From assembly GCA_016735395.1 (NCBI GenBank), contig JAERRO010000006.1, positions 2,488 through 66,487 of the forward strand: a stretch of 64,000 bases of DNA, written 5' to 3'. The translations under genes and the position numbers were made by a program. Under the pieces are notes generated by a model, which did no database searches, had not been told where the DNA came from, and was given only the letters and a program-made list of their open reading frames with translations. The DNA is from Alphaproteobacteria bacterium (GTDB lineage: Bacteria; Pseudomonadota; Alphaproteobacteria; Rs-D84; JAERRO01). Shown here piece by piece: positions 3,650-35,542 of the stretch (the stretch's first letter is position 1; each line of letters begins with the position of its first letter).

Positions 3650-6600
3650 TATTTTGAGGCAGGAACTTCGTCATTATTTTCTACAGTTTTTTGCGGACTT
3701 TCTTCTTGACTAGTAGAAAACATCCCTTCTAGTTTTGGAGAAATATCTTTCATATCTTTCAACTCTTTTCTTAAAGTTCTAGTATAAAATCCGGTTCCAA
3801 GAGGAGGAAGTTGTCCCATCATAACATTTTCCAGGACACCTTCTAAATTATCGACATCTCCTTTTACAGCAGAATCTGATAAAACTTTGATTGTCCTTTG
3901 GAAGGAAGCCGCCGCTAAAAACGAAGTATGATTTAAAACTGCATCTTTTATTCCGAGAAGAATAGTTATAAATGTCGCGGGTCTACCGCCGGCGGTTTCT
4001 ATTTCTTCGTTTATTTTTTCTACTTGTCTACGGTCGAATCGTTCACCTGTCAGCATTTTGGTATCTCCAGGGTTTATAATTTTGACTTGTCGAACCATCT
4101 GTCGAATAATAATTTCGATATGTTTATCGTTTAAAGAAACTCCTTGAGATCTAAAAACTTCTTGTACCTGTTGAGTTAAATATTGAGTTAGAGCTTTAAT
4201 TCCCATGACTCTTAAATATTCTCCAAGATGAGGTTCACCGTTAATTATCAAATCACCTTTGTTAACGAAATCTCCAGATTGAACGAGAAAGTTGCTACCT
4301 TTTGGAAGCATATAGATGATATCGTCGCTTCCATCTGTAGGTTTAATAATCAGTTGTTGTCTAATTCTAGTAGATTCTCCGAATATTACTTCGCCTGATT
4401 TTTCTGCTATAACGGCAGGATATTTAGGATTATTCACATCAAAAAGTCTTTCTATCTGAGAAAGCCCTCCGATAATATCTCTAGTTTTCGTCATTTCAAT
4501 AGGCAATTTAAAGAGGACGGATCCGACTTTAACTGTATCTCCTTCTTCGACAACTAGTTCTGCATTGATTGGCAAAATGATTTCTACATCTTTACCGTCG
4601 TGTGTTATTGCTTCGCCTTTGTCATCGAGCAAAGTTATTCTAGGTCTCAAGTGTTTTCTGGTGTACCGTTTCCAGTCGCAGATAGAAAATCCTTGAACTC
4701 CTGTAGTCTCGTCTGTGTTAGACATCACAGAAACATTTTCTATGAGATCCTTAAATTTGACGATTCCGTTATATTGAGAAAATATGACATTAGAGTGTGC
4801 ATCCCATTCTACAATTCTATCGCCCTTTTGAACATTAGCTCCATCTTGTACCGTCAAGATAGATCCATAAGGTATCCTTTGTCGAAGTGCCTCTTGATTA
4901 TTAGAATTTAGCAAAACCATTTCCGCATTTCTAGATAGCACGATAATTTTATCGTCGTCATTTTTAATAGATTTTGCATTTAGAAATTGTACTTTGGCAT
5001 CAATAGGTGTATCGATACTATTTTTTTCCGCAGAATATTGAGCTACTCCTCCTATGTGGAAAGTTCTCATAGTCAATTGTGTTCCAGGTTCACCTATAGA
5101 TTGAGCCGCTATAATACCGACGGCTTCACCGACATTCACCAGAGTTTTTCTAGCGAGATCTATCCCGTAACATTTTGAACAGATACCTCTTTCACATTTA
5201 CAACATACGGCCGATCTAACTTTGACAGATTCTACTCCTTTACTAAAGACGATATCTGCTGTCTCCGGCAAAATAATTTCACCCCGTTCTAGAATTATTT
5301 TATTAGTAGTCGGATCTATAATATCTACGGCTAGAACTCTGTTTATGATTCTATCTTTTAAAGAGACAACTTGATTCATACCTTCATATATGGCTCTCAT
5401 TTCTAGAAAATCTTCGGTACCGCAATCTTGTTCAGTGATGATGACATCTTGAGCTGCACTCACGAGTCGTCTAGTAAGATATCCACTTCTAGCGGTTTTA
5501 GTCGCAGTATCTGCCATACCTTTTCTAGCTCCATGAGTAGACATAAAGTATTCCATAGGAGAAAGTCCCTCTTTAAGATTCGATGTAATTGGGGTTGCAA
5601 TAATTTCTCCGGACGGTTTAGACATAAGTCCTCGCATCCCTGCAAGTTGATTAAATTGTGTAGCGGAACCTCTAGCTCCTGAGTCTGACATCATAAATAT
5701 AGAGTTTATATTTTTAGAATTTTGATCTACAAATATATTTTTGAGGTCTTCTTGAATTTTCGCATTACAGTTGGACCAGGCCTCTATCATTTTATGTGAT
5801 CTTTCACTAGAAGAGACTAATCCCTGTTGATATTGGCTTTCGAATTTTTGTGTTTGTATTTTGGTATCTTCGATAAATTTTTCTTTATTTACAGATCCCT
5901 CAATATCTAGATGAGTCATAGAAGTTCCTGAAATACAGGCATATTCAAATCCTAGGTCTTTTAATTTATCACAATATTCTACTGTGGCTTCTAAACCGGC
6001 AGTGTCATAAACTGAAGATATAGATTTCTCTACGACTTTTTTATTTACGATTTTATCGATCCAAGCGATACTTTCTTTAGATTTTACTGGCATACAGTCC
6101 CAAATAAGCAGTCTACCTAGAGACATATTTACGGTAATTTTTGAGTATTTTTGATTTTTATCGATTACATCTAGTTTTATAAAGACTTTGGTATGGATAG
6201 AAATTTTATCTTGTTGATAAGCATTTTTCAGGTCGTCTAAAGAGTAAAAGGTTCTATCGGTTTTCTCTTCTTTAGGAGCTTCAAGAGAAATATAATAAAG
6301 TCCTAGCAACATATCTTGAGTTGGCACACACATCGGATTTCCCGTTGCGGTAGATAATATATTTTGAGAAGCGTGAATTAAAGTTCTACATTCTTCTTGA
6401 GCTTCGATAGAAAGCGGAACATGTATGGCCATTTGATCACCATCAAAATCTGCATTAAAACCTGAACAAACTAGAGGGTGTAAGCATATAGCTTTACCTT
6501 CTACTAGCACGATATCGAAAGCTAAAATAGAAAATTTGTGTAAAGTAGGTGCACGGTTAAGCATTACTGGATGTTGTTTAATAACTTCGGCTAATTTATC

Positions 6601-7854
6601 AAAAACCACAGACTCACGGGCTTCTATCATCCGTTGAGCATTTCTAACTGTTGTAGCTCCGTTATTTTCTCCATCGGCAAGAAGTTTTGCGATAACGAAC
6701 GGCTTAAATAATTCCAGAGCCATAAGTTTAGGGACTCCAACTTGATGAAGTTTTAAGAATGGACCAGGAACGATGACAGATCTACCTGAATAGTCTACCC
6801 GTTTTCCTAGCATGTAAGATCTCCATCTACCAGATTTTTGGCTAATAGTATCTGTTAAAGATTTCATAGGCACGGTGCCTGCAGGATTATTTTTTGATCC
6901 AGAGATAAGTTCATCGACGGCTTCTTGAAGCATTCTTTTTTCGTTATTAACGATGATACCTGGTGCTCCCATCTGTAGAAGTCTTTTAAGTCTAGTATTT
7001 CTGTTGATTATTCTTCTGTATAGATCGTTTAGATCTGACGATGCCATTCTTCCCATTTCCAGTTGCATAAGAGGACGAAGTTCCGGAGCTAATACTGGTA
7101 AAACGGTTAACACCATCCAAGCAGGTTTTACTCCCGAGTCAATAAAAGATTCGATTATACGGAGTTTTTTAATAATTTTTTGCCTAGTAATAATAGACTT
7201 TGATTTAGTTAGGAGTTCTCCTAGAGATATCTTTTCGGATTCTAGATCAATATTTTTTAGTATTTTTAATATGGCTTCTGCCCCCATACCGACATCAAAG
7301 GCATCGCTACCGTGTTCTTCGATGGCATCGTCTACTTCTTGTTGAGTCAAAAAAGAGAAAGATTCTAGAGGAGTTAGTCCTGATTCTATAACGATATATA
7401 AATCGTAGTAAAGAACTGCTTCAAGTTTTTTTGGAGCTACTCCCATAAGAGTCGCAATTTTAGCATTAGAAGATTTCATAAACCAAGGGTGTACGACGGG
7501 TGTCGCCAGTTCTATGTGTCCCATTCTTTCTCTTCGCACACTAGATTGAGTAATTTCCACACCACATTTTTCACAAATAATGCCCTTATTTTTAGGCTTT
7601 TTATATTTTCCACAGAGACATTCAAAATCACTAATAGGACCAAAAATCTTTGCACAAAACAGTCCACCTCTTTCGGGTTTAAAAGTTCTATAATTTATGG
7701 TTTTAGATTCTACAACTTCACCATAGCTTTGAGCTAGAATTTGTTCTGGAGAGGCAAGTCGTAAGACGACGGAATTCATAGCTCCGGCAGACGAGTCGAC
7801 GATCTCTGAAATTATTGTAGAGGAGTTAAAAAAGTTAGGTGTGTGTATAGACAT
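3649..7854 (-). CDS. rpoC: DNA-directed RNA polymerase subunit beta'
   Basis: 1401 aa. It carries the NADFDGD catalytic motif and a zinc-finger Cys cluster near the N-terminus, and lies immediately downstream of rpoB. Confidence 0.95.
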   Translation of the reverse strand: MSIHTPNFFNSSTIISEIVDSSAGAMNSVVLRLASPEQILAQSYGEVVESKTINYRTFKPERGGLFCAKIFGPISDFECLCGKYKKPKNKGIICEKCGVEITQSSVRRERMGHIELATPVVHPWFMKSSNAKIATLMGVAPKKLEAVLYYDLYIVIESGLTPLESFSFLTQQEVDDAIEEHGSDAFDVGMGAEAILKILKNIDLESEKISLGELLTKSKSIITRQKIIKKLRIIESFIDSGVKPAWMVLTVLPVLAPELRPLMQLEMGRMASSDLNDLYRRIINRNTRLKRLLQMGAPGIIVNNEKRMLQEAVDELISGSKNNPAGTVPMKSLTDTISQKSGRWRSYMLGKRVDYSGRSVIVPGPFLKLHQVGVPKLMALELFKPFVIAKLLADGENNGATTVRNAQRMIEARESVVFDKLAEVIKQHPVMLNRAPTLHKFSILAFDIVLVEGKAICLHPLVCSGFNADFDGDQMAIHVPLSIEAQEECRTLIHASQNILSTATGNPMCVPTQDMLLGLYYISLEAPKEEKTDRTFYSLDDLKNAYQQDKISIHTKVFIKLDVIDKNQKYSKITVNMSLGRLLIWDCMPVKSKESIAWIDKIVNKKVVEKSISSVYDTAGLEATVEYCDKLKDLGFEYACISGTSMTHLDIEGSVNKEKFIEDTKIQTQKFESQYQQGLVSSSERSHKMIEAWSNCNAKIQEDLKNIFVDQNSKNINSIFMMSDSGARGSATQFNQLAGMRGLMSKPSGEIIATPITSNLKEGLSPMEYFMSTHGARKGMADTATKTARSGYLTRRLVSAAQDVIITEQDCGTEDFLEMRAIYEGMNQVVSLKDRIINRVLAVDIIDPTTNKIILERGEIILPETADIVFSKGVESVKVRSAVCCKCERGICSKCYGIDLARKTLVNVGEAVGIIAAQSIGEPGTQLTMRTFHIGGVAQYSAEKNSIDTPIDAKVQFLNAKSIKNDDDKIIVLSRNAEMVLLNSNNQEALRQRIPYGSILTVQDGANVQKGDRIVEWDAHSNVIFSQYNGIVKFKDLIENVSVMSNTDETTGVQGFSICDWKRYTRKHLRPRITLLDDKGEAITHDGKDVEIILPINAELVVEEGDTVKVGSVLFKLPIEMTKTRDIIGGLSQIERLFDVNNPKYPAVIAEKSGEVIFGESTRIRQQLIIKPTDGSDDIIYMLPKGSNFLVQSGDFVNKGDLIINGEPHLGEYLRVMGIKALTQYLTQQVQEVFRSQGVSLNDKHIEIIIRQMVRQVKIINPGDTKMLTGERFDRRQVEKINEEIETAGGRPATFITILLGIKDAVLNHTSFLAAASFQRTIKVLSDSAVKGDVDNLEGVLENVMMGQLPPLGTGFYTRTLRKELKDMKDISPKLEGMFSTSQEESPQKTVENNDEVPASK

Positions 7855-7862
7855 AAGGTCTC

Positions 7863-10800
7863 CTATTCTGATTTTTTAAATTCGATGTTAAGTGCGAGAG
7901 CTTCTAATTCTCTAGCGATTACATTTATAATTTCCGGGCGATGAGTTTCTATATCGTGTCTTTGATTGACAATAGAATCATATGCTTTCAGTCTTCCAGT
8001 TACATCGTCAGATTTTACGGTAAGCATTTCTCGCAAAGTGTATGCCGCTCCATGAGATGCCAAAGCCCAAACTTCCATTTCACCGAACCGTTGACCACCT
8101 TCTCTAACTCTACCTCTAAGCGGTTGTTGAGTAATAATAGAGTATGGACCTACAGATCTAGCGTGGATTTTTTTATCTACAAGATGGTTAAGTTTTAGCA
8201 TATATTTATATCCGACAGTTACAGGCCTATCAAATTTTTTACCAGTAATTCCATCGTATAGATCTACTTGTCCAGATCCCTCTAGTCCTGCGAATTCTAA
8301 CAGTTCTTTAACATCTTCAAAAGATGCACCGTTAAAAATAGGAGTTTTAATATAGAGTCCATCGCGAACATTATGGGCTAGTGCTATTACTTCTTTATCT
8401 GAAAAATTATCTATATCGGAGTGAGAGAAAGAAAACTTCATGATCCCTTTGACTAGGTCCCTTAACTTTTTCACATTTTCCTTTTTAGCGACAACTTTAT
8501 CAGCTAATTCGGCTAATTTTTGTCCTAAAGCTTGTGCTGCTCTACCGATATGAGTTTCCAGAAGTTGTCCAACATTCATTCTCGAAGGAATACCAAGAGG
8601 ATTTAGAACGATGTCTACAGAAGTCCCATCTTTCATATGAGGCATATCTTCTACAGGCAAAATTTTAGAAACGATACCTTTATTTCCGTGTCTTCCTGCC
8701 ATTTTATCACCAGGTTGAATTTTAGATTTATAGGCTATATAAATTCTAACTTCTTTTAATACTCCAGGAGGTAGGTCGGCATATTCTGTAGCTTGTAAAA
8801 AAGCCAGTTCATATTTTGCGACTAATTTTTCTAATTTTTGTTTATTTTTATTTAGTAGTGCTTTCCATTTCTCTTGAGATTTATCGTCTTTCAAAGATAT
8901 AGATTTAACAGCGGGCAGAGATAATTCGTCAATTATATTTTGAGTTATTTTATCCCCTTCCAACTTCTTCGCAGATTTGTTAGATGCGGAGGCTATCGTA
9001 TTACCGATCAAAATACCTTTTGCAGATTCTATAAAAGCTTCGTTATAAATTTTTTCTTCAGCTTTTAATGCATCTGTTAATTCTTTAGTATCTTGAGTTT
9101 CTATCATTAGAGTTCTTTGATCTTTTTCCAGACCTTGTCTAGTCAAAACAGAAACACCGATTACGGTTCCTTCGCTATCTGAACATCTAAAAGATGTATC
9201 TTTATAGTTAAAAGTTTTCTCTCCAAAAATGGTATTTAAGAGTTTTTCTTCTACAGAAACCGTAGCCTCTCCCTTGGGAGTAATTTTACCGACGACGATA
9301 TCACCTTTTTTAATAGTTGTCCCGACATTTACGATACCTGCTTCATCTAAATGCCTTAAAGCATATTCTCCCATATGCGGAACTTCTCTAGTAATAATTT
9401 CTTCACCAAGTTTAGTATCGTGAAGGACGACTACTTCTTCTTTTACATGTACAGAAGTATATACATCCTCTTTGATAAGTCTTTCGGACAGTAATATTCC
9501 ATCTTCAAAATTATATCCTCTCCAGGGCATAAAGGCCACTAGAACATTTTGTCCTAGAGCGAGTTTTCCGTTTTCGGTACAAGCTCCGTCTGCTAGAACA
9601 TCGCCTTTTTTCACAGATTCACCTACACTAACGAGTGGTCTCTGATGAATTATGGTATCTCCATTTGATCTATTAAAATTATTTAACTTATAAAAATCTG
9701 CTAGAACTTCGCCTTTGATTTTAGATCTAATCACGATGGCTTTGGCATCTACAGATTCTACGATACCGTCTGTCCGAGCGATAACGACACTTCTAGAATC
9801 TACAGCAATTTTCTTCTCCATACCTGTTCCGACTAGCGGAGCTTTAGGTTTAATTAGAGGGAGAGCTTGTCGTTGCATATTAGAAGCCATCAGTGCTCTC
9901 GATGCATCATTATTTTCTAGAAAAGGAACTAGATTTGCTTCGACAGAGGCAATTTGTCCTGAAGAGACATCTATATATTCGACTTGTTCTCTTTTTACCA
10001 GTTCTATTTCTTCTTTGTGTCTAACATAGCACCATTCATTTTCTATTTTTCCATTTTTATCTAAAACGGTAGTTGCAGGAGCGACTAGTCTACCGTCTTC
10101 TGCTATAGCGGTAAGATAGACGACTTCGTCAGTTCTCTTTCCATCGACTACTTTATAATAAGGAGATTCTAAAAATCCATAATGATTTATTCTAGAATGA
10201 GATGCGAGGGCTAAAATAAGTCCGATATTTGGTCCCTCTGGAGTAGTAATAGGGCAAATTCTACCGTAATGAGTATAGTGTACATCTCTTGCATCGATAG
10301 AAACATGTTCTCTAGACATACCGCCGGGGCCCATGGCAGAAAGCCTTCTACTTTCAGCGACTTCAGATAGAGGGTTTACTTGTTCCATAAATTTAGAGAG
10401 TGAAGACATTCCGAAGAATTCATTTAAAGCAGAAGAAATAGTTCTTCCGTTAATTAGACTCATAGGAGTCATATTTATAATGTCAGAGTTATTCATTCTT
10501 TCATTGATATTACTTCTCAATCTACGAAGTGCAGATTTATATTGATTTCCGACAAGTTCACCTACAGTTATAACTCTTCTGTTAGCCAAATGATCAATTT
10601 CGTCTGGGCCTAAAGAGAGATCTCTTGCTATCATTAAACTTTTAATAGTATTCAATATATCTTGCACACAGAGAGGTCTATTTTCTATATTTTCCGGATC
10701 TTTATTTTCGTTAAATCGTTCATTCATCTTGAATCTACCGATAGCAGAAAGATCATATCCGTTAGTATCGAAGAAGGATGCCTTCAACCGTCTATCCGCC

Positions 10801-11975
10801 GCATTTAGAGTCGGTCTTTCTCCAGCTCTCAAAGTACTATATACCTCGGCTAAACATCCGGCTCTATCTTTATCGCCGTCATATTGAATAGTTAGACACA
10901 TATGATTTCTTACACTATAGTGATCGATAGCTAAGATTTCTATTTTTTCTAGTCCTTTAGTAATAGATAAATTATCCAGAGTAATATCATACCCTGCTCT
11001 AATAATTCCTACACCCTCTCCAGTATTATTTGCGACGAACTTTCCTATAATAGAAGACTCTTCTATATAAGCCATATTATTTTTAAATTTCTGTTGTAAT
11101 TTAGAAAGGGAGATCGTTTCATTTTTATTTATGACAACTTCAGATTTGACATTAACTATTTCAAAAGGAGATTTTTTTAGACCTTTAATATTGTCTATAT
11201 CGAATGAGAAGAGTTTTTTATCTCTAGTCAGAGAAATTTTATCATAGAAGGTATTTAGTAGATCTTCATTTGAAAATGTATTTATATTGACATCTCCATC
11301 GATCCATTTCTTTTCGTCTTCTATAGTCGGCAGACATCGCAAGAAAGTTGAAAGCGGAATTTTTCTTTTTTTACTAATAGAAATATACAGATGATCTTTG
11401 GTATCGAAAATTATGTCTATCCAGTGTCCTATCTGCGGAATTATTCTAGCAGAATAGAGCATCTGTTTATCCGAAGAAGAACTAGGTTTATTTATGATAC
11501 TCACACCTTGAGATCTTTGAATTTGAGCGATAATAACTTTTTCATTACCGTTAATTACGAAGGTTCCATTTTCTGTCATAAGAGGAATAGCGTGGACGAA
11601 AAAAGATTGCTGTTTGATACCTCTAATAGTCCTCTCGTCGTTATCGCTATTATCGAATGTGACAAGTTTTAGATTAAGTTTAACAAAAGATTCGTATGTT
11701 GCGTGTTTAGCACGACATTGTTCTGGCGAGTATATAGGATCGACAAGTTCGTATGAAACAAATTCTAGAGTTGCATTAGGCTTATCTACATTAGGAGATT
11801 TGATAGGAAAATAAGAATTAAATGCTGCTTGCAGTCCTTGATTTTTTCTATTTTCAGGATCTATATCTGCCTGTAAAAACTTTCGATAAGAGTCCTCTTG
11901 AACTCCGATAAGATCGTCATTATTTGGCAGATCTTCTCTCTTCGCAAAATTGATTTCGATGGTATCGTGTATCAT
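7863..11975 (-). CDS. rpoB: DNA-directed RNA polymerase subunit beta
   Basis: 1370 aa with conserved RpoB blocks (GEMEVWAL, PGGLRFGEM-like regions). It is followed by rpoC after an 8-nt spacer. Confidence 0.95.
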   Translation of the reverse strand: MIHDTIEINFAKREDLPNNDDLIGVQEDSYRKFLQADIDPENRKNQGLQAAFNSYFPIKSPNVDKPNATLEFVSYELVDPIYSPEQCRAKHATYESFVKLNLKLVTFDNSDNDERTIRGIKQQSFFVHAIPLMTENGTFVINGNEKVIIAQIQRSQGVSIINKPSSSSDKQMLYSARIIPQIGHWIDIIFDTKDHLYISISKKRKIPLSTFLRCLPTIEDEKKWIDGDVNINTFSNEDLLNTFYDKISLTRDKKLFSFDIDNIKGLKKSPFEIVNVKSEVVINKNETISLSKLQQKFKNNMAYIEESSIIGKFVANNTGEGVGIIRAGYDITLDNLSITKGLEKIEILAIDHYSVRNHMCLTIQYDGDKDRAGCLAEVYSTLRAGERPTLNAADRRLKASFFDTNGYDLSAIGRFKMNERFNENKDPENIENRPLCVQDILNTIKSLMIARDLSLGPDEIDHLANRRVITVGELVGNQYKSALRRLRSNINERMNNSDIINMTPMSLINGRTISSALNEFFGMSSLSKFMEQVNPLSEVAESRRLSAMGPGGMSREHVSIDARDVHYTHYGRICPITTPEGPNIGLILALASHSRINHYGFLESPYYKVVDGKRTDEVVYLTAIAEDGRLVAPATTVLDKNGKIENEWCYVRHKEEIELVKREQVEYIDVSSGQIASVEANLVPFLENNDASRALMASNMQRQALPLIKPKAPLVGTGMEKKIAVDSRSVVIARTDGIVESVDAKAIVIRSKIKGEVLADFYKLNNFNRSNGDTIIHQRPLVSVGESVKKGDVLADGACTENGKLALGQNVLVAFMPWRGYNFEDGILLSERLIKEDVYTSVHVKEEVVVLHDTKLGEEIITREVPHMGEYALRHLDEAGIVNVGTTIKKGDIVVGKITPKGEATVSVEEKLLNTIFGEKTFNYKDTSFRCSDSEGTVIGVSVLTRQGLEKDQRTLMIETQDTKELTDALKAEEKIYNEAFIESAKGILIGNTIASASNKSAKKLEGDKITQNIIDELSLPAVKSISLKDDKSQEKWKALLNKNKQKLEKLVAKYELAFLQATEYADLPPGVLKEVRIYIAYKSKIQPGDKMAGRHGNKGIVSKILPVEDMPHMKDGTSVDIVLNPLGIPSRMNVGQLLETHIGRAAQALGQKLAELADKVVAKKENVKKLRDLVKGIMKFSFSHSDIDNFSDKEVIALAHNVRDGLYIKTPIFNGASFEDVKELLEFAGLEGSGQVDLYDGITGKKFDRPVTVGYKYMLKLNHLVDKKIHARSVGPYSIITQQPLRGRVREGGQRFGEMEVWALASHGAAYTLREMLTVKSDDVTGRLKAYDSIVNQRHDIETHRPEIINVIARELEALALNIEFKKSE

Positions 11976-14250: not shown

Positions 14251-14784
14251 TTAGACAGATCTTTCGATTTGCCCATAGTTTAGATCTACTTGAGTATCTC
14301 TACCGAAGATAGAAATAGAAAGTTTGATCCGTTTTTTATCATCTTCTACGGCGATGATCTGCCCTTGAAAAGACATAAAAGGACCTTCAATGACCTTTAC
14401 GACTTCTCCAATTTCATATATTATATCTGTTGCGAAAGGATTTTCTCCGTTATCGTCGCCATTATTGATATTTAAAAGCTTATCTACATCTTTAGAAGCC
14501 ATAGGCACAGGCACATTTTTTTGGTTTAAAAATCCGAGAGCTTTAGGAGTTCTTCTTACTGTTTGAAAATTCTCGTCGGACATAACCATCTCAACGATTA
14601 TATACCCAGGAAAAGTCTTCTTCTGAACTAGTTCTTTTTTACCGCCTTTAATTTCAGTCTTCTCATATGTCGGCACAAGAATATTCCCGAACCCACCGTT
14701 AGCAGAAGCATCTACTTTTTCTTGCAAAGCCTCTTTAACTTGATTTTCGCAACCTGATTGCACATGAACGACATAGTATTTCAT
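14251..14784 (-). CDS. nusG: Transcription termination/antitermination factor NusG
   Basis: 177 aa with an NGN domain (YVVHVQSGCENQVKEAL) and a KOW motif. It sits between secE and rplK. Confidence 0.9.
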   Translation of the reverse strand: MKYYVVHVQSGCENQVKEALQEKVDASANGGFGNILVPTYEKTEIKGGKKELVQKKTFPGYIIVEMVMSDENFQTVRRTPKALGFLNQKNVPVPMASKDVDKLLNINNGDDNGENPFATDIIYEIGEVVKVIEGPFMSFQGQIIAVEDDKKRIKLSISIFGRDTQVDLNYGQIERSV

Positions 14785-14991: not shown

Positions 14992-15067
14992 TGGCAGGGG
15001 AAACAGGGTTCGAACCTGCGACCTGCGGTTTTGGAGACCGACGCTCTACCAACTGAGCTATTCCCCT
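14992..15067 (-). tRNA. tRNA-Trp (anticodon CCA)
   Basis: The reverse complement reads AGGGGAATAGCTCAGTTGGTAGAGCGTCGGTCTCCAAAACCGCAGGTCGCAGGTTCGAACCCTGTTTCCCCTGCCA. The anticodon loop is CTCCAAA and the CCA is encoded. This is the canonical position upstream of secE-nusG. Confidence 0.85.
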
Positions 15068-15234
15068 AAACGATGTTAACTTCTTTAAGTATGCCAACAT
15101 TATTTTAGAAAAGCAACCCCTCTTGCAACTTTTTTTTACAATGACAAAGTATAATCAGAACTTTAAGAATTTTTTTCTATTAGAGACGGCTCTATTTTGT
15201 GGTTCAAATTTTCGTTTCTCGTTATCGTCATATA

Positions 15235-15264
15235 AAAAAGTCCAGTTATAATGGCTGGACTTTT
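15235..15264 (-). terminator. Rho-independent terminator downstream of the rubrerythrin gene
   Basis: A 10-bp stem aaaagtccag/ctggactttt flanks a 9-nt loop. On the minus strand it is followed by TTTTTTATAT. Confidence 0.6.
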
Positions 15265-15286
15265 CATACTAAAAAACAATAAAATA

Positions 15287-15868
15287 TTACCAGTTAGTTG
15301 GCATTACTTCAAAATGTTCTTGTTTATGTTCACAAGCAGGACATACTAGAGGAGCTTCATCACCGGAGTGTTGGTATCCACAGTTGAGGCATTTCCAAGT
15401 TGTCTTTTCTCCGCCATCTTTTTTGAATACAGTTCCATCTTGAATATTTTTTCGAAAAGCTTTGAATCTCTCTTCATGATATTGTTCTGCGATAGCGATA
15501 GAGTCAAAAATTTTAGCTATATTTTCGAATCCTTCATCACGAGCGACTTTTGCAAAATCCGGGTACATAGTAGAATGTTCGTAGTTTTCTCCATCGGCAG
15601 ACCCTGCTAGATTTTCTTCAGTAGTTCCTATTGCGGGGATACTTACTCCTACTTCCATTTTAACATCACAACCGTGAGCTAGTTTAAATAACCGTTTAGC
15701 ATGTTGTTGTTCGTGTTTTGCCGTCTCTTTGAAGGCTTCAGAGATCTGTATAAACCCTTCTTTTTCGGCTACAGGAGCGAAGTACAAATATCTGTTTGAT
15801 GCCTGAGATTCACCTAGAAAAGCCTGACAGATATTTTCTAGAGTTTTTGTTCCGTTAAGTTTGTTCAT
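15287..15868 (-). CDS. rbr: Rubrerythrin
   Basis: 193 aa. It has an N-terminal ferritin-like di-iron domain (E..H motifs) and a C-terminal rubredoxin-like CLNCGY...CPAC four-Cys domain. Confidence 0.75.
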   Translation of the reverse strand: MNKLNGTKTLENICQAFLGESQASNRYLYFAPVAEKEGFIQISEAFKETAKHEQQHAKRLFKLAHGCDVKMEVGVSIPAIGTTEENLAGSADGENYEHSTMYPDFAKVARDEGFENIAKIFDSIAIAEQYHEERFKAFRKNIQDGTVFKKDGGEKTTWKCLNCGYQHSGDEAPLVCPACEHKQEHFEVMPTNW

Positions 15869-16152
15869 ATATTATCCTTTTTTTATAACTATGATTAGTA
15901 TATAATAAAGTTTATTATAAATCAATTTTTAGAGCAAAAAAAAAGTTCCCGTCTAGGCTATAGTATCATTTCAAAAAGCTTTACAATTCAACAAAAAGAA
16001 TAGACCTTTTATCTTGTATTAAAAGTTCTTAAAATATATTGTATGTTAAATAATGGTTATGACCTGGTTAAAAAAATACCTATCTACCTATGTTATAAGT
16101 GAGTAGTAAGTATATAGATAAAAGCCGACTTCATAGCTAGAAAACATTAGAG

Positions 16153-16653
16153 GTGCTATTTATGACTTTTAACATTTTCAATCATGAAGTAGTGATACAA
16201 GAAGTTCCGAACGAGATAAGCCTATCATTTTCAGTAGTAGGTTGTACATTAAATTGTCCAGGTTGCAGTTGGGAGGGTATTAGAAAGAATGAGCCATACG
16301 AAGAATTAACAGACAAAAAATATATAGACCTTTTAGAAAAATACAGAGGGTTGTGTAGTTGTGTTCTATTTTATGGTGGCGAGTGGCACGAGGAGAAATT
16401 AAAAGAATTTTTAATTTTAGCGAAAGATTATGACTTTAAAACTTGTCTTTATACAGGACTAGACGAGATATCTCTGTCTTTGATGAAGCACCTAGACTAC
16501 TTAAAAACAGGTCCATATATTGAGGCGATGGGAGGACTAGACTCTGCGACGACGAATCAGAAGTTTTACGATCTAACCTTAAAAAAGTCGCTTAATCACT
16601 ATTTTTTAAAAAAATCGATAGCAAAGGAAGACAAAGTTATATTTGACAGTTAA
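16153..16653 (+). CDS. nrdG: Anaerobic ribonucleotide reductase activating protein (radical SAM)
   Basis: 166 aa. A CTLNCPGC cluster (Cx3Cx2C) lies near the N-terminus, with a YGGEW motif. It is immediately upstream of nrdD. Confidence 0.65.
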   Translation: MLFMTFNIFNHEVVIQEVPNEISLSFSVVGCTLNCPGCSWEGIRKNEPYEELTDKKYIDLLEKYRGLCSCVLFYGGEWHEEKLKEFLILAKDYDFKTCLYTGLDEISLSLMKHLDYLKTGPYIEAMGGLDSATTNQKFYDLTLKKSLNHYFLKKSIAKEDKVIFDS

Positions 16654-16678
16654 AAAAACAAAAACAAAAGGGTAAAAT

Positions 16679-18622
16679 ATGAAGAACAACAAAAAAGTTA
16701 CTATGATAAGATTGAGGGAAGATCAGTTAGAGAAAAAAGTAAATTTTATAAATAATTATATTGAGATTGATGAAAATGCTGCCGATGCTTCTGTCTTGGA
16801 TGCGAATGCCAACATCGTTTCAAAGAACTTGTCGACTTTAACTACAGAACTACATAAAGACATAAATATCCAGATAAACAGGTCCCTAATAAGTAGAACT
16901 TTGCAAGAAAAATTTGGCGATACCTATTCCAAAGAGTATATCCGTCAACTTGAGAATCACGAGATCTATACACACGATGAATCTTCGTTATCGCCGTATT
17001 GTGTGAGTATATCTATGTACCCGTTCCTATTAGGCGGTATGACAGCTCTAGGAGGGGAAGCGAAGGCTCCAAAGCATCTAGCATCTTTCACAGGATCCTT
17101 TGTTAATTTGATCTTTGCGGTCTCATCGCAGTTTGCAGGTGCGGTAGCATCTGTAGAATTTTTGATGTGTTTTGACTATTTTGCTAGAAAAGATTACGGG
17201 GACGATTATCTTAAAACTGACAAGAAAGTTATAGAAAATCAACTTCAGCATGTAGTCTATGCCCTAAACCAACCCGCCGCCGCTAGAGGCTATCAGTCGG
17301 TATTTTGGAATATATCTATATTTGATAAGTTCTACTTTAACTCTATATTTCAAGACTTTATATTTCCAGGAGATCAAAGCAGACCTAATTGGGGTTCACT
17401 ATCTAAATTGCAAGATTTCTTTATGAAATGGTTTAACGAAGAGCGGAGTAAATGTCTATTGACTTTTCCTGTTGTTACCGCCGCTATTTTGACAGAGGAT
17501 GACAAGCCTAAAGACAGTAAATTCGCAGATATGTGTTGTAAAGAAATGAGCGAAGGAAACTCGTTCTTCGTATATATGTCGGATACGGCGGACTCTTTAG
17601 CCTCTTGTTGCAGGCTTCGTAGTGAGATTGTAGATAATACATTTTCGTATTCTCTAGGAGCTGGAGGAGTATCTACAGGTAGTATAAATGTCATTACTGC
17701 AAATATAAACCGTCTTGTACAAAACTCTATATTGAGTCAGTTTAAAGAGCAGAACCCTAAATCTGAAAATCCGTTAACTTTAAAGGTCGCAGATAATTTT
17801 GAGTTATGGAAGAGCGAGGTACTAGACAAAACTGTAATCGACCATGACAAAATACAGGAAGATCTAAAAATACAGATAGAAAAGATACACAAATATCAGG
17901 TTGCGAGCCGTCATCTTTTTGAAAAGTATGAAAAGGGCGGTATGTTAACAGTCTATAATGCTGGCTATATATCATTTGAGAAACAGTTCTTGACTATAGG
18001 AGTGAACGGTTTTGTAGAGTCTGCAGAGGCTTTGGGCATTAGTCCGACGAACAATAAAGAGTATAAGAAATATTTAAACGGAATGTTGAAAGTTATATAT
18101 AATTCTAATAAGGAGGCAAAAAGTCTATACGGCTACCTCTTTAACACAGAATTCGTCCCTGCCGAGAATTTGGGTGTAAAAAATGCATCGTGGGATAAAA
18201 GAGACGGTTATTATAGTCCTAGAGATTGTTATAATTCTTATATGTATGTTGTAGAAAACGAATATACTGATCTGGTAGATAAGTTTGTTTTACACGGCAA
18301 AGAGATAGTAAAATACCTAGATGGTGGGAGTGCTTTACATCTAAATCTTGGAGAATACCCTACTCAAGAGTCGTATCGAAAACTTTTTAATATATCTGCA
18401 AAGACTGGGTGTAATTATTTTACTACGAATGTAAAGATTACTATCTGCGAACAGTGTAATAATATAGACAAGCGGACTCTAGACAGTTGTCCTAAATGCA
18501 GTTCTACTAACCTATCGTGGGCTACGAGGGTTATAGGATATTTAAAGAAGGTTTCATCATTCAGTTCTAAAAGGCAGTGTGAAGAGAGCGATCGCGATTA
18601 TGCTGGGTGCAACAACCTATAG
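16679..18622 (+). CDS. nrdD: Anaerobic (class III) ribonucleoside-triphosphate reductase
   Basis: 647 aa. The C-terminal Zn-ribbon CEQC...CPKC is followed by the glycyl-radical motif TRVIGYL. A palindrome ctatagat-ttt-atctatag overlaps the stop codon. Confidence 0.7.
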   Translation: MKNNKKVTMIRLREDQLEKKVNFINNYIEIDENAADASVLDANANIVSKNLSTLTTELHKDINIQINRSLISRTLQEKFGDTYSKEYIRQLENHEIYTHDESSLSPYCVSISMYPFLLGGMTALGGEAKAPKHLASFTGSFVNLIFAVSSQFAGAVASVEFLMCFDYFARKDYGDDYLKTDKKVIENQLQHVVYALNQPAAARGYQSVFWNISIFDKFYFNSIFQDFIFPGDQSRPNWGSLSKLQDFFMKWFNEERSKCLLTFPVVTAAILTEDDKPKDSKFADMCCKEMSEGNSFFVYMSDTADSLASCCRLRSEIVDNTFSYSLGAGGVSTGSINVITANINRLVQNSILSQFKEQNPKSENPLTLKVADNFELWKSEVLDKTVIDHDKIQEDLKIQIEKIHKYQVASRHLFEKYEKGGMLTVYNAGYISFEKQFLTIGVNGFVESAEALGISPTNNKEYKKYLNGMLKVIYNSNKEAKSLYGYLFNTEFVPAENLGVKNASWDKRDGYYSPRDCYNSYMYVVENEYTDLVDKFVLHGKEIVKYLDGGSALHLNLGEYPTQESYRKLFNISAKTGCNYFTTNVKITICEQCNNIDKRTLDSCPKCSSTNLSWATRVIGYLKKVSSFSSKRQCEESDRDYAGCNNL

Positions 18623-18699
18623 ATTTTATCTATAGGTTAGAAGACAACTTATTATAGAATTTTTTTGCAGGGTCGAAATAAATAAAGTATACTAATATT

Positions 18700-19973: not shown

Positions 19974-20846
19974 TCAAAACATATAATGTTTTGCCTCGAA
20001 AGTTTTTTGAGCATTAATCTGGTTCAGAAAATTATCGACTTCCTCTGCCGCTTCGTTAATTAAAGTCAAAGAGCTAGTCGTCCTCAAAATGTACGGAGAT
20101 GCTTTAGTACTTCCTGTAAGCCAATAGTTGTCTCCACTGTTTGGCGGTCCATATTTTTGTTCTGCACTTTGCCAAAAATTAAATATTTTAAGTTTTCTTT
20201 GATACTCAAATTTTTCACCGAGTCCGTCAGTGTCTCCCGCATCATTAGTATAGACAATTTTCCAAACTTTAGAGTTCGCTAAAGGACTAGTAAAATGCAA
20301 CTCGATAGTCTCGGCAGTCTCATTCCTCTTTAGAAAAAGAACTTTTTGATAGAGCCAGTTATTCTGTTGTGCGACTCTGTGTATACATTTAGAAATTTCC
20401 GACGGGACGGTCAAAGATTGTCTACATACATAGTCTAAATTATATCTGTAAAATCTATGCATTTCTTGTTCTGACTTTTTTGAGATATCTATCCCGAATC
20501 TGATATTTTTATTTTTCAAAAAAGATTGCACGAGTTCTTTCGACATACCTAGAACGAATCCCGAGACATCTAGCATACCTTCATCTAAAAACTCTTTTTC
20601 TTGATTGAGTTCTTGAGATAACATTGTAGAAGTAATTTTGGAAATCTCATTTTGAGTTATGTCTGCGATATGGTTTGTTGAGTTCTCTGTATTTTTCCTA
20701 TCGATATTTTTGTCGATATTAAATTTAGGGAGACCTTTCGAATTAGCCTGTATAGTTAAAAAAGGGCAAATCAAAAGAACAAACAATATATAGATAATTT
20801 TATTAAACATACATAAACTATATAATAAAAGAGAAGACAATAACAA
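19974..20846 (-). CDS. Hypothetical secreted protein
   Basis: 290-aa ORF whose N-terminal hydrophobic signal peptide is ...ILFVLLICPFLTIQANS. No recognisable domain. Confidence 0.5.
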   Translation of the reverse strand: MLLSSLLLYSLCMFNKIIYILFVLLICPFLTIQANSKGLPKFNIDKNIDRKNTENSTNHIADITQNEISKITSTMLSQELNQEKEFLDEGMLDVSGFVLGMSKELVQSFLKNKNIRFGIDISKKSEQEMHRFYRYNLDYVCRQSLTVPSEISKCIHRVAQQNNWLYQKVLFLKRNETAETIELHFTSPLANSKVWKIVYTNDAGDTDGLGEKFEYQRKLKIFNFWQSAEQKYGPPNSGDNYWLTGSTKASPYILRTTSSLTLINEAAEEVDNFLNQINAQKTFEAKHYMF

Positions 20847-20855
20847 GTAAAAGTT

Positions 20856-21371
20856 CTATAGTATTTTTCTGCTATCTAGAATAAATTTATATGCTTCTAC
20901 TATTCCTGCGAAGAACTTTTTATCTATATCTTTATTTTTGTCTGGATGATATTTTTTGACTAATTTTAAATATTCTTTTTTTATATTTTCTAGTTCACAA
21001 TCTTGTTCTATCTTAAAAATATTGTGAGCTATTTCTAGAGTTTCTGTATAAATAGATCTGACTGTCTTAACCTTTTTATTTTTAAAAAAGAGAAATTGTT
21101 CTATATTTTCTTCTACAGATCTATTAGATTTTGCCGACGATTTCAGTGGCAACCCTACCTTGAGTTCAAAGTCTATCGCCTCTATTTCTTTATCCGACAA
21201 ACCTTTATAATAGTTCCAAGATTTATTATATTCTTTTACATGTTTCAAGCAAAAGTACCAGTGATCCTTCAGCCCTCTATTTTTTGGCGCCTTAAATTCT
21301 CCTGCATTAGAACATTTCATTGCATCGCATCTTCTACGAAAATCCGGTCTTTTTGTCATTTTTTTGATCAT
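20856..21371 (-). CDS. J-domain (DnaJ-like) protein with an N-terminal Cys/His cluster
   Basis: A C-terminal J-domain has the HPD motif (KKYHPDKNKD). The N-terminus reads CDAMKCSNAG...HWYFCLKHVKEYN, suggesting a zinc-binding module. Confidence 0.55.
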   Translation of the reverse strand: MIKKMTKRPDFRRRCDAMKCSNAGEFKAPKNRGLKDHWYFCLKHVKEYNKSWNYYKGLSDKEIEAIDFELKVGLPLKSSAKSNRSVEENIEQFLFFKNKKVKTVRSIYTETLEIAHNIFKIEQDCELENIKKEYLKLVKKYHPDKNKDIDKKFFAGIVEAYKFILDSRKIL

Positions 21372-22246
21372 TTTGAACTACTATTGTTATTTTTTATCAT
21401 AGGATGTTTTAAAAGTTGTTTATGTAATTCAGAATTTTCTAGATGAGTATAAATTTGTGTAGTCGAGATATTTTGGTGTCCTAGAAAAGCCTGAATTGTT
21501 TCCAGTTGCACACCGCCTGCGAGCAAATGAGTAGCGATAGAATGTCGTAAAATGTGAGGTGAAACTTTAGAGCTAGTCCACCCTAAATCAGGGGCAATCC
21601 TTTTTACCATTTTAAAAAAACCACCTCTAGTTAAATGTCCACTTGAAGAATTACTAGGAAATAAAAACGGTGATTTTGCCCATTTTTTATCTTTAGATAA
21701 ATCTTCGATCCACCTATCGACAATTTCTTTTACAGTTTTTGTAATAGGGATAATCCGTTCTTTGTTCCCCTTTCCTAATACAAAAATAGAATCTTTACCT
21801 ACATTATTTTTTTTCAACGAGACTAATTCGGAGACTCTCAATCCTGTATAATAGATCAACTTCATCATCGTTATAGCTCTTATATTATCGTCTAATTTAG
21901 TTAACTTTTTGATATCATTTTCTGAAATTACTTTAGGAAGTCTGTTATAACTTTTGGTCTTACAAGAGTCTAGATCAGGAATTTTCTTTATCAATTGTTC
22001 GGAGAATAAAAACTGCAGATATTGTTTTAGGGCAGAAATTTTTCTTTGTTGAGATGTCATATTAAATTTTTGCAAGAAAGATTGATACTCAAGAAATTCG
22101 TCTACAGAGACTTCTTCTATTTTTTTATTAACAAATTGAGCTAACTGAAACAGATCACTTCTATATGCATTGATAGTATTTTTAGACACTCCTCTTTCTG
22201 CGAGCATCATATCAAAAAAAGTTTCGTAGATAAATTTATTAGTCAT
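21368..22246 (-). CDS. xerD: Site-specific tyrosine recombinase XerD
   Basis: 292 aa. The N-terminal SAM-like domain (ERGVSKNTINAYRSDL) and the catalytic tail HILRHSIATHLL...TQIYTHL are both typical of XerC/D. Confidence 0.8.
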   Translation of the reverse strand: MTNKFIYETFFDMMLAERGVSKNTINAYRSDLFQLAQFVNKKIEEVSVDEFLEYQSFLQKFNMTSQQRKISALKQYLQFLFSEQLIKKIPDLDSCKTKSYNRLPKVISENDIKKLTKLDDNIRAITMMKLIYYTGLRVSELVSLKKNNVGKDSIFVLGKGNKERIIPITKTVKEIVDRWIEDLSKDKKWAKSPFLFPSNSSSGHLTRGGFFKMVKRIAPDLGWTSSKVSPHILRHSIATHLLAGGVQLETIQAFLGHQNISTTQIYTHLENSELHKQLLKHPMIKNNNSSSK

Positions 22247-22412: not shown

Positions 22413-22793
22413 TTATACTCCATCTAGCATTCTTAAATATCCGCTAGCTCCAGAGGCACCTTCTTGAGGCACAAAAATTTCTACAACATAAGACGATAAA
22501 AACAGTAATAGGAATCCGATCATTATCCAAAATATCTGTTCCATACTTATCGGAGCTTTTCCATCTTCGGCTTTTCCTGTTAAATTATTTTTGATAAGAT
22601 TGTATCCTATTTTAAAGAACAGTAATCCCGCTGCTATAAATATCAAAATTCTAATGGTCGTCAAAACCCCTGCAATTCTACCAGTAATTTCACCTAGAGC
22701 TTGCCCACTTGATGCTGGAAGGTCTATTGCGAAGACGAGTAAAACGAGAAAAATTCCTAGATGTATCATTACTGGTTTAAATTTATTAGTCAT
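22413..22793 (-). CDS. VirB2/TrbC-like (type IV secretion pilin-like) membrane protein
   Basis: 126 aa. A signal peptide is followed by a short hydrophilic stretch, a TM segment, a charged loop (KNNLTGKAEDGKAP), a second TM segment and a short tail. This architecture is typical of T4SS pilin subunits. The call is by architecture only. Confidence 0.3.
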   Translation of the reverse strand: MTNKFKPVMIHLGIFLVLLVFAIDLPASSGQALGEITGRIAGVLTTIRILIFIAAGLLFFKIGYNLIKNNLTGKAEDGKAPISMEQIFWIMIGFLLLFLSSYVVEIFVPQEGASGASGYLRMLDGV

Positions 22794-31515: not shown

Positions 31516-32121
31516 TTATGATGTCTTTATCAATTTCAATTTTATCACTTTCGTAATTTTGGTTAGAGAATATTGAATAGTCCAGGTATCTATAAATTCT
31601 ATATCTTTATCTGTTGGTTTATCATTTTTGATGGGACTTTGAAGAGAGTAAAAGATCAATTGAAAAGTACTATTTTCACGATCGACGGAATTTATTTTAA
31701 TTTTAGAGAGACTCTTGAGTTTTGTTTTAGGCGGATTATTTGACAGGGTTAAAAAAACTGTAGGGCTTACTATCCGTCTAATCCTCAAGAGGTTTTGACT
31801 CTGGAAATTAGAAACTATATTGTAGAAGAAATTTGCAAAACATTTTCCAAAGGTTTCTGATTCAAATTTTTTGGGGTAAACAGTTTTCGCAAAATCTATA
31901 ATTAGATCGAAGTCTATAGCAAATTCAACGGTATTATTATTTTTATCTAAAAAAGTGATAGCATCACCCACAGACTTTTTAATACCAATTTCTTTACCAT
32001 CGTCTTGTGATTTATTGAAATTTTTGACTGGATCGATATCCTGTTTCATTTTAAAGAAACTAAAGGCTAGCGATATAATGACGAGAGTCATAATTATAGA
32101 GGTAATAAAACTAAAATCCAT
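31516..32121 (-). CDS. Hypothetical membrane-anchored protein, possibly with a Tim44-like domain
   Basis: 201 aa. An N-terminal TM helix is followed by a soluble domain. No firm motif. Confidence 0.4.
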   Translation of the reverse strand: MDFSFITSIIMTLVIISLAFSFFKMKQDIDPVKNFNKSQDDGKEIGIKKSVGDAITFLDKNNNTVEFAIDFDLIIDFAKTVYPKKFESETFGKCFANFFYNIVSNFQSQNLLRIRRIVSPTVFLTLSNNPPKTKLKSLSKIKINSVDRENSTFQLIFYSLQSPIKNDKPTDKDIEFIDTWTIQYSLTKITKVIKLKLIKTS

Positions 32122-32232: not shown

Positions 32233-32361
32233 ATGTCGAGTAAAATAGTAAATTGTGCTATATTATTGTCTATCATATTTGTATTAAACGGTTGCGGTAA
32301 TAAAGGGAATATTCAAACTCCTCCACAACCTTCATATAGTTATCCGTCTAATCTATTTTAG
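32233..32361 (+). CDS. 42-aa small lipoprotein whose 3' end overlaps the convergent ileS 3' end
   Basis: Hand translation gives MSSKIVNCAILLSIIFVLNGC|GNKGNIQTPPQPSYSYPSNLF, with lipobox LNGC. A strong SD GGGAGGTAAAAATG and a consensus-like promoter lie upstream. It is below the ORF-track cutoff. Confidence 0.5.
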   Translation: MSSKIVNCAILLSIIFVLNGCGNKGNIQTPPQPSYSYPSNLF

Positions 32362-35300: not shown

Positions 35301-35542
35301 ACTCTATCTACAAAAAACCCTTTCATAGTAAAAAATCTAGCGACAGAATCTTTAGGATAACTGGCACTTAAATGTCCCATATGCGGTTTTCCATTTGCGA
35401 ATGGGGGGCCGTCATAGAAAACGAAAGGCGGATTATTTTTAGATTGTTCTAGTGATTTTTGAAATGTGCCATCTAATTCCCAAAATTTTAGGACGGTAGC
35501 TTCAGATTTATTTACATCAAATTTTTGTGGTATATTAAACAT
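32348..35542 (-). CDS. ileS: Isoleucyl-tRNA synthetase, eukaryote-like type 2
   Basis: 1064 aa with HIGH motif PHMGHL and KMSKS variant KLSKS. The C-terminal extension lacks the Zn-finger typical of type 1 IleRS. Confidence 0.9.
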   Translation of the reverse strand: MFNIPQKFDVNKSEATVLKFWELDGTFQKSLEQSKNNPPFVFYDGPPFANGKPHMGHLSASYPKDSVARFFTMKGFFVDRVWGWDCHGLPGELATEKALELNGKKQIEEFGVQPFIDHCKQDVMKFSPNFEAVIEKSGRWVDFNRGYKTMDNSYTESVLWAFKKIYDKGLIYEGVKIQPYSWSAEVVISSSETRQDDNTRERQDTAISVAFELKKSKMLETILEDKLSEDEVENLTVRLIAWTTTPWTLPANLALAVNPDITYILYKDKSFINIIAEKSMKKYKIDRSQIVSSVNGKQIKNLEYIPLFDYYKDHKKPVFTVLTADYVLDDEGSGIVHIAPAFGEEDLELVKSVDRDFPVEDPVSSIGEFLPIVKDFEGLNVFKANDKIIENIKNNGALIKKETISHMYPHCWRTKEPLIYKAINSWFLKVSDMNDRLVELNDKINWTPDFIKDGIMKNWLAGAKDWAISRNRFWGAPIPVWKSDDSKYPRIDVYGSFADIEKDFDLTDKIIDFHKPFADSLTRKNPDDPSGKSNMRRIPDVFDCWFESSSMPFAQHHYPFENKQLFEDNFPSDFVAEYIAQTRGWFYNMIVISCVLFDDVPFKNVITTGVVLDESGKKLSKSSANYGDLSKILDQIGSDPVRMTLYNSPFYKAENFKFLQASIQNTNKIFFIPLWNALYFFGLYADIEKISPVLNDRENTTNLFSKYILTSLQLLTNDMSKALEKFDFFSASQKFSAFLDDLNNWFIRLNRNLFWGRSDNLETQEAFNTLYTVIHSLAKLSAPIMPFFAETVWQKINPLEKSVHLQNYPEVINLSRQDNEIIYNMNVVKEICSIAKNIREIVKIKNRTPLNNITIFSASKSILNVFNNGFAEEYKDIILKEINVKNIIIQPDIDLVAKKVLYIKTPVVGKRLGAKLKEISVAVKINDYIIKDNIAFIAGEELVADEFEIKLMTNDENSVDKVSRQNDFVVSLDTNLTDELEREGIARDIIRTVQDFRKYKKFAVSDKINLEISISADKVLKAIDEWKSFIKEQTLTNSLNVVDHKLEAVKSDIQNLSLKISKID

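Follow-up and report, generated by a model that had tools for sequence, protein, structure and literature searches.

Probable separate origins of a rubrerythrin gene and a divergent nrdG-nrdD operon beside tRNA-Trp-secE in a metagenome-assembled alphaproteobacterial genome

Introduction

Anaerobic ribonucleotide reductases (RNRs) have been described previously from host-associated Alphaproteobacteria. In 'Ca. Phycorickettsia' (Rickettsiales), the nrdDG operon was reported as a lineage-specific candidate for horizontal gene transfer, and anoxic episodes were inferred for this organism (Yurchenko et al. 2018, PMC6092422). Similarly, the Hepatincolaceae are host-associated Alphaproteobacteria of anoxic guts, and the Labiotermes symbiont in this group carries an anaerobic RNR (Castelli et al. 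2025, PMC11724238). Here we analysed a 64-kb stretch of DNA (hereafter the window; contig JAERRO010000006.1, assembly GCA_016735395.1) from a metagenome-assembled genome (MAG) labelled as Alphaproteobacteria, in which a rubrerythrin gene (rbr) and a divergent nrdG-nrdD pair, encoding a class III RNR and its activase, lie directly beyond tRNA-Trp and secE. An earlier note on this DNA had read the three genes as a single anaerobic module inserted upstream of tRNA-Trp-secE. Our analysis points instead to two ordinary, separately derived units that have long been resident in the genome, a monocistronic rbr and a divergent nrdG-nrdD operon; together with the mechanism proposed below, we give this reading a probability of about 0.75.

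The core idea of a class III RNR in Rickettsiales or other host-associated Alphaproteobacteria is already precedented, and because nrdDG has been published for Rickettsiales (PMC6092422) its presence here is less surprising than first assumed. Compared by description, 'Ca. Phycorickettsia' is likewise a host-associated alphaproteobacterium that carries a class III RNR with its activase, in a group otherwise considered aerobic. Its genes, however, are given in the order nrdDG, against nrdG-nrdD in the window, and no rubrerythrin was reported beside them. The Hepatincolaceae equally are reduced, host-associated alphaproteobacteria in anoxic niches, one member having a class III RNR, yet no close relationship to them was detectable and the RpoB and NusG of the window have no near relatives.

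Among characterised enzymes, the NrdD of Thermotoga maritima (Protein Data Bank (PDB) entries 4COI and 4U3E) and that of Neisseria bacilliformis ('NrdDh') have in common with the window NrdD the fold, an SCCR motif, a Tyr-Cys pair, a glutamate, a Zn-ribbon and the glycyl-radical loop, and all are without an ATP-cone. The window NrdD is 24-25% identical to the T. maritima enzyme over the structural alignment, reads RVIGY rather than RIVGY at the glycyl-radical motif, and has an extra helical insertion of about 43 amino acids past the barrel strand behind the finger loop. A further counterpart is the cassette found in Flavobacteriia, Idiomarinaceae and Bdellovibrio (families TIGR02827 and TIGR02826), which agrees with the window in gene order, in the hidden Markov models (HMMs) matched and in RVIGY. 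It differs in that the window NrdD and one metagenomic sequence (P0002) branch off deeply on their own and have an insertion found in no other member, and rbr is adjacent only in the window. The gene content itself is ordinary, both families being well characterised and the cassette widespread; what sets this locus apart is that its NrdD branches deeply and has an insertion of its own, that rbr lies next to the cassette and that the host is extremely divergent.

Results and discussion

nrdG and nrdD form a two-gene cassette, with rbr outside it

The main features of the locus are as follows.

14992..15067, minus strand: tRNA-Trp (CCA), called by ARAGORN and by Rfam RF00005 (69 bits)
15287..15868, minus strand: rbr, 193 amino acids
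15869..16161: divergent rbr/nrdG intergenic region, 293 bp, AT-rich
16162..16653, plus strand: nrdG, 163 amino acids
16679..18622, plus strand: nrdD, 647 amino acids, class III (glycyl-radical) ribonucleoside-triphosphate reductase of the TIGR02827 subfamily

Beyond the tRNA-Trp end of rpoBC-rplLJAK-nusG-secE-tRNA-Trp, the gene order is rbr on the minus strand followed by the divergent nrdG-nrdD on the plus strand, with all three open reading frames (ORFs) intact. The ORFs, ARAGORN and the HMM families thus confirmed the three genes at the positions given for them in the earlier note. The tRNA-Trp gene heads the array tRNA-Trp-secE-nusG-rplK-rplA-rplJ-rplL-rpoB-rpoC, and its 5' (promoter) side faces rbr.

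GTDB (one genome per species) was scanned with an NrdD alignment, which gave 530 loci; the best 80 were taken with 8-kb flanks and searched by tblastn. A homolog of NrdG lay directly upstream of nrdD in every locus with upstream DNA (78/78), and no rubrerythrin homolog was found within 8 kb on either side of nrdD (0/80). We therefore regard nrdG-nrdD as a fixed two-gene cassette, with rbr standing outside it. In the window, nrdG ends 25 nt before nrdD, and this short gap, the Shine-Dalgarno sequences and a terminator behind rbr all support two units. A single three-gene module inserted as a block, as had been claimed, is contradicted by this difference in linkage and by the relatives of rbr, which are a different and mixed set.

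NrdD belongs to the class III RNRs and carries a lineage-specific insertion

NrdD matched TIGR02827 with 868 bits (cutoff 568) and PF13597 with 332 bits, and no ATP-cone (PF03477) was detected in it by the HMM scan. By sequence, the nearest solved structures in the PDB were the T. maritima NrdD entries alone (E ~1e-63). An AlphaFold2 model (mean predicted local distance difference test score (pLDDT) 69) showed a predicted ten-stranded alpha/beta-barrel RNR fold, nearer to NrdD than to pyruvate formate-lyase-like enzymes. Against T. maritima NrdD (4COI/4COJ/4COL/4U3E) the model gave template modelling (TM) scores of 0.62-0.69 and E values of 1e-21 to 1e-23, against other NrdDs (Prevotella copri, phage T4, Streptococcus thermophilus) 1e-6 to 1e-9, and against pyruvate formate-lyase-like glycyl-radical enzymes ~1e-3 or weaker. 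The family match and the model both bear out the earlier assignment of nrdD as a class III RNR rather than a pyruvate formate-lyase. The motifs and the insertion lie as follows.

16997..17002, plus strand: Y107-C108, aligned with T. maritima Y124-C125
17603..17614, plus strand: SCCR motif (S309-C310-C311-R312), aligned with T. maritima 328-SCCR-331
17729..17857, plus strand: lineage-specific insertion of about 43 amino acids (I351-Q393), placed by alignment
18149..18151, plus strand: E491, aligned with T. maritima E495 (position counted from the alignment)
18446..18541, plus strand: C-terminal Zn-ribbon and glycyl-radical motif (C590, C593, C604, C607, then RVIGY)
18527..18541, plus strand: glycyl-radical motif RVIGY (R617-Y621), placed by the subfamily alignment; counterpart of T. 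maritima RIVGY

Across an alignment of 16 NrdD sequences of the subfamily, C590, C593, C604, C607, T616-R-V-I-G-Y621, C108, C310-C311 and E491 were invariant. The glycyl-radical motif noted earlier is therefore present, but the view that RVIGY departs from the norm did not hold, since the motif is the normal one in this subfamily and nothing peculiar to the window gene.

In subclass NrdDh the tyrosine is fully conserved, SCCR is highly conserved and both SCCR cysteines are required for activity (PMC4493059). The T. maritima/N. bacilliformis type has been tied to a protein reductant (thioredoxin), with a glutamate base replacing formate (PMC4493059, PMC4390871). As Y107-C108, SCCR and E491 match this subclass, the window NrdD is, judged by these motifs, most likely a thioredoxin-type enzyme that would draw its electrons from a thioredoxin-like protein rather than from formate. 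In this comparison we take T. maritima E495 to be the equivalent of N. bacilliformis E438.

The insertion is common only to the window NrdD and the metagenomic P0002, in which it measures 48 amino acids; all others in the alignment are without it. It was modelled by AlphaFold2 as short helices with a pLDDT of 82-94. A metagenome scan with the insertion-bearing segment found no further carriers, the best match being 55%.

At the far end of the gene, an 11-bp hairpin overlaps the stop codon:

18614..18638, plus strand: nrdD-end hairpin, -14.4 kcal/mol, z = -2.59

This hairpin, which was not called by a consensus scan for terminators, is possibly a terminator or an mRNA-stabilising stem; because it is without an adjacent U-run, its role as a terminator is no more than plausible.

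NrdG is very probably the TIGR02826 activase

NrdG scored 144 bits against TIGR02826, slightly below the cutoff of 151.7, a shortfall that we ascribe to divergence. The CX3CX2C motif (GCTLNCPGC) is present, and the protein is 41-53% identical to the NrdGs of the cassette in the tblastn search of the GTDB loci; it is very probably a member of this family. The ATG at 16162 is favoured as the start over the GTG at 16153, with a GAGGTG Shine-Dalgarno sequence 7 nt upstream of the ATG, and the gene call of the NCBI record likewise gives 163 amino acids.

Rubrerythrin is encoded by a gene with its own terminator

Rbr matched NF045767 with 246 bits (cutoff 200), as well as PF02915 and PF21349, and comprises a four-helix bundle with a diiron site and, at the C terminus, a rubredoxin-like domain with CxxC...CxxC. 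It aligned end-to-end with the rubrerythrin of Desulfovibrio vulgaris (1RYT/1B71, E = 1e-62); the diiron ligand motifs (E/H) are retained in this alignment, as are the two CxxC pairs, and the identification as rubrerythrin is secure. The two proteins have the two-domain architecture and the metal ligands in common; D. vulgaris is a sulfate reducer, whereas the window comes from a proteobacterial MAG whose envelope genes are those of a Gram-negative bacterium. Behind the gene lies the following terminator.

15235..15264, minus strand: rbr intrinsic terminator, a GUCCAG stem plus A/U pairs, a 9-nt loop and UUUUUU

Its fold (-14.9 kcal/mol, z = -3.86) was equalled by none of 200 shuffles, and it was overlooked by the consensus scan because its loop exceeds 8 nt. 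Terminators had been proposed on both flanks of the three genes: the one on the rbr side, with its stem followed by U6, stands, and on the nrdD side the hairpin is real, with a terminator role as weighed above.

The closest relatives of Rbr are just ~50-53% identical to it. Its top matches are mixed: besides nameless metagenomic proteins and a protein of Anaeramoeba flamelloides, they include a cluster from Opitutae and proteins fused to glutaredoxin, rubredoxin or a Tat signal. The protein of A. flamelloides, an anaerobic protist (P0263, 53% identical), is a single data point among many bacterial matches. A tie between rbr and anaerobic-protist proteins was considered and rejected, as the N-terminal extensions of the other top matches are varied bacterial fusions, and a link to a host drawn from this match is too weak.

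The nrdGD cassette was likely acquired from a foreign source long ago

A protein search with NrdD gave 8000 matches, of which the best 120 were considered. Apart from the MAG of the window itself, the named proteins in this set are all from Flavobacteriia. Further groups come in with the best 80 of the 530 GTDB loci, namely the gammaproteobacterial Idiomarinaceae and Salinivibrio, Bdellovibrio, Cytophagia and a Chlorobiota MAG, their NrdDs being 59-62% identical to that of the window. Neither in the best 120 of the 8000 proteins nor in the best 80 of the 530 GTDB loci was another alphaproteobacterial NrdD found; a foreign origin of nrdGD is therefore likely, though an old one. The horizontal acquisition proposed earlier thus remains probable as far as foreign origin is concerned, and is not supported as the insertion of a three-gene block.

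In a neighbour-joining (NJ) tree of NrdD, the window sequence pairs with P0002 (JGI 3300000504; 70-72% identical) at 100% bootstrap, outside a monophyletic Bacteroidota group (83%). The pair attaches near Bdellovibrio (81%). In the matrix behind the tree the pair is 63-66% identical to every group and the groups are 68-72% identical to each other, and the branch of the window NrdD is deep and nested in no donor group. A recent transfer from Flavobacteriia, which the list of matches had suggested, was ruled out by the tree and the identity matrix. P0002 comes from a 3-kb contig on which pth and a GGDEF-domain gene lie behind nrdD, and nrdD reaches past the contig end.

L003, 110..1903: nrdD of P0002, contig of 35.6% GC

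The composition of the three genes was compared with that of the 37 other genes of the window. Their GC content is 0.34-0.39 (others 0.346 +- 0.022), their GC content at third codon positions (GC3) is 0.26-0.35 (z -0.4 to +2.0) and their codon-usage distance has z -0.1 to +1.2; NrdD, with a GC3 of 0.352 against 0.278 +- 0.038, is at the upper edge. No att-like direct repeats were found flanking the block, and the stretch from 15.1 to 18.7 kb is free of mobility genes. Islands integrate at the 3' end of a tRNA gene, but it is the 5' side of tRNA-Trp that the block adjoins. The native composition, the lack of att-like repeats and the position on the 5' side of the tRNA thus give no sign of recent insertion. 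The simplest account is that nrdGD was acquired horizontally long ago and has since adapted to the composition of the host.

The surroundings of secE were compared with two distant relatives that have usable context (L005 and L006), no close relative being among those compared.

Window 15068..15286, L005 1012..2661 and L006 8485..9984: tuf-secE comparison regions

In both relatives tuf lies directly upstream of secE, in agreement with the earlier description of tuf as a common occupant of this spot. In the 64-kb window tuf was not detected at any point, and its usual place upstream of tRNA-Trp/secE is taken by rbr. The adjacency of rbr to tRNA-Trp-secE therefore points to a rearrangement of the junction that tuf normally occupies rather than to an inserted island. 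No structured RNA was found within the block by Rfam.

Proposed role of the locus

NrdG, a radical-SAM protein with a [4Fe-4S] cluster, would use S-adenosylmethionine to put a glycyl radical on G620 of NrdD, and NrdD would then reduce ribonucleoside triphosphates to deoxyribonucleoside triphosphates without O2. A thioredoxin-like electron source would suit a genome lacking pyruvate formate-lyase. Rubrerythrin would reduce H2O2 at its diiron site, with electrons entering via the rubredoxin-like domain, and, from what is known of the family, may shield NrdD and other enzymes sensitive to O2 or peroxide when oxygen is briefly present. The organism would accordingly replicate, for part of the time or more, where oxygen is absent or scarce (anoxic or microoxic conditions). 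The nrdGD cassette, of a type otherwise found in Bacteroidota, a few Gammaproteobacteria and Bdellovibrionota, was probably acquired long ago, and rbr would have come separately. That the organism meets anoxia, as had been proposed before, is supported by its genes for a class III RNR and rubrerythrin.

The locus may thus serve as a physiological marker, an oxygen-sensitive RNR together with rubrerythrin indicating replication in anoxic or microoxic surroundings. If the genome otherwise has neither RNRs of class I or II nor terminal oxidases, it would represent a new anaerobic lineage among host-associated Alphaproteobacteria, and such a lineage would bear on how frequently adaptation to anoxic hosts has occurred within this class.

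Alternative explanations

Several points weigh against two separately derived units with an old foreign cassette at their core. Alphaproteobacterial members of the subfamily may sit lower in the two lists of matches; the NrdD tree is a neighbour-joining tree of 31 sequences with 100 bootstraps, and its attachment near Bdellovibrio may be long-branch attraction. No close relative of the host was found in the collections searched, and the age of the acquisition and the question of vertical inheritance are judged from indirect evidence. That rbr and nrdGD are linked in function is drawn from their adjacency, and the reductant of NrdD is assigned from sequence motifs; the role of SCCR is under debate (PMC4493059), and no thioredoxin gene lies in the 64-kb window.

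Vertical inheritance of the cassette from an alphaproteobacterial ancestor, its apparent foreignness being due to sparse sampling and the extreme divergence of the lineage, would account for the fully native composition and for an NrdD branch that is long, deep and in no other phylum's clade, and the lineage is so isolated that its ancestral state is poorly constrained. Nevertheless, the best 120 proteins and best 80 loci hold Bacteroidota, Idiomarinaceae, Salinivibrio and Bdellovibrio and no other alphaproteobacterium. Moreover, NrdD is ~5 points below the identity seen between phyla and RpoB is at least 16 points below the level between classes, which suggests a shorter stay of NrdD on this fast-evolving branch; a tighter constraint on NrdD could give the same pattern of identities. 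We consider vertical inheritance unlikely. An acquired anaerobic island of rbr-nrdG-nrdD, inserted by tRNA-Trp in an aerobic Rickettsiales-like genome, is largely refuted and very unlikely. A tRNA gene does adjoin the block, the nearest named homologs of NrdD are not alphaproteobacterial, the GC3 of NrdD is at the upper edge of the window range, and a tyrosine recombinase gene lies 2.7 kb off at 21368..22246. However, this recombinase has N-terminal SAM-like and integrase catalytic domains, as would be expected of a housekeeping XerC/D type, and native rpoH and dciA-like genes stand between it and the block. The absence of rbr from the cassette in all 80 genomes, the separate set of rbr relatives, the ordinary composition and codon usage, the lack of att-like repeats, the position at the tRNA 5' side and a deep NrdD branch within no donor group all speak against an island as well.

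We also considered an assembly or binning chimera in which flavobacterial or other foreign DNA was joined to a ribosomal-protein contig. The source is a MAG; the window, which is identical to parts of GCA_016735385.1 and to Logan contigs from run SRR13427717, covers three separate contigs of that NCBI record (JAERRM010000002.1, JAERRM010000032.1 and JAERRM010000001.1) and thus derives from a longer assembly. Yet the single contig JAERRM010000032.1 holds rbr-nrdGD between rpoBC and rpoH-ftsK, and Logan contig L002 (run SRR13427717) joins rbr-nrdG-nrdD-rpoH-dciA alike, maybe from the same reads as the MAG. The codon usage matches that of the neighbouring genes, and NrdD, at just 59-62% identity to any flavobacterial sequence, is not a contaminant from a known organism; a chimera is highly improbable. 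A bolder view of the host is that the MAG represents an unsampled, extremely divergent alphaproteobacterial, possibly Rickettsiales-related, lineage of obligately anaerobic symbionts, with NrdD as the sole RNR and rubrerythrin in place of aerobic defences. We hold this to be an unlikely extension; if true, it would mean that a group seen as aerobic had independently given rise to an anaerobic lineage.

The host appears to be an extremely divergent proteobacterium

Two genes of the ribosomal-protein array were used to place the host.

7863..11975: rpoB
14251..14784: nusG

RpoB is at most 46-48% identical to anything among 5.8 billion proteins, with alpha- and gammaproteobacterial matches tied; those RpoBs are 63-78% identical to each other. 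NusG had no relative above 43% in the protein search, in which the best named match was a Rickettsiales MAG (38%), and a scan of the GTDB species genomes with NusG gave no match, the MAG of the window being absent from the species representatives scanned. In an NJ tree of RpoB the window joins a long-branched Rickettsiales MAG (96%), a grouping that may reflect long-branch or AT-bias attraction as much as kinship, and the reduced, Rickettsiales-like nature of the host assumed earlier is unproven. Judged from these proteins, the host would be an extreme orphan lineage, a very divergent AT-rich proteobacterium.

In or just beyond the window lie rpoH, a dciA-like gene, kdsB, lpxA, lpxI-lpxB, lolCDE, lptFG and mlaEF, a set that indicates a Gram-negative proteobacterium. 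Alphaproteobacteria typically use LpxI where other bacteria have LpxH, and the class label is supported by this; the presence of LpxI together with RpoH fits Alphaproteobacteria/Proteobacteria. The DNA beyond both window ends, where nrdAB/nrdJ and oxidases were looked for, holds housekeeping and envelope genes only, and no genes for a class I or II RNR, an oxidase, a nucleotide translocase or a secretion system were found in the ~75 kb of window and flanks. The lpxI-lpxB gene resembles a fusion, with matches to Pfam LpxI_C, LpxB and, weakly, LpxI_N.

63550..64000, continuing on L131 (JAERRM010000001.1) at 6547..8532: LpxI-LpxB fusion-like gene, 661 amino acids

Seven ORFs of 126-546 amino acids had no Pfam match.

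46578..48218: ORF without a Pfam match
39046..40092: ORF without a Pfam match
35573..36535: ORF without a Pfam match
31516..32121: ORF without a Pfam match
56158..56679: ORF without a Pfam match
19974..20846: ORF without a Pfam match
22413..22793: ORF without a Pfam match

The six of these that were scanned against NCBIfam had no match there either, and we regard all seven as lineage-specific or very fast-evolving proteins. The isolation of the host is perhaps of more interest than the anaerobic genes themselves.

Intergenic region and other features

Promoter-like sites were found on both sides of rbr.

15128->15099, minus strand: promoter-like site on the tRNA-Trp side
15925->15897, minus strand: promoter-like match for rbr

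No NrdR box or FNR box was found in the 293-bp rbr-nrdG region, and counts of these boxes across the window were at chance level. The -35-like and -10-like hexamers of rbr flank a perfect 9-1-9 palindrome, TATAATAAA-G-TTTATTATA, at 15901..15919. The 64 kb contain a single further perfect palindrome with 9-bp arms, the nrdD-end hairpin. As about two would be expected by chance from the base composition, by our own estimate, it is their positions that are suggestive. The palindrome at 15901..15919 is a candidate operator, for which a Fur/PerR type would be a reasonable guess.

Elsewhere in the window, ileS (32348..35542) encodes an isoleucyl-tRNA synthetase that scored ~600-640 bits against the MupA/MupB models, besides matching the general ileS model. 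A gene for a D12-class adenine methyltransferase lies past the window start, and a RhuM-family gene past the window end.

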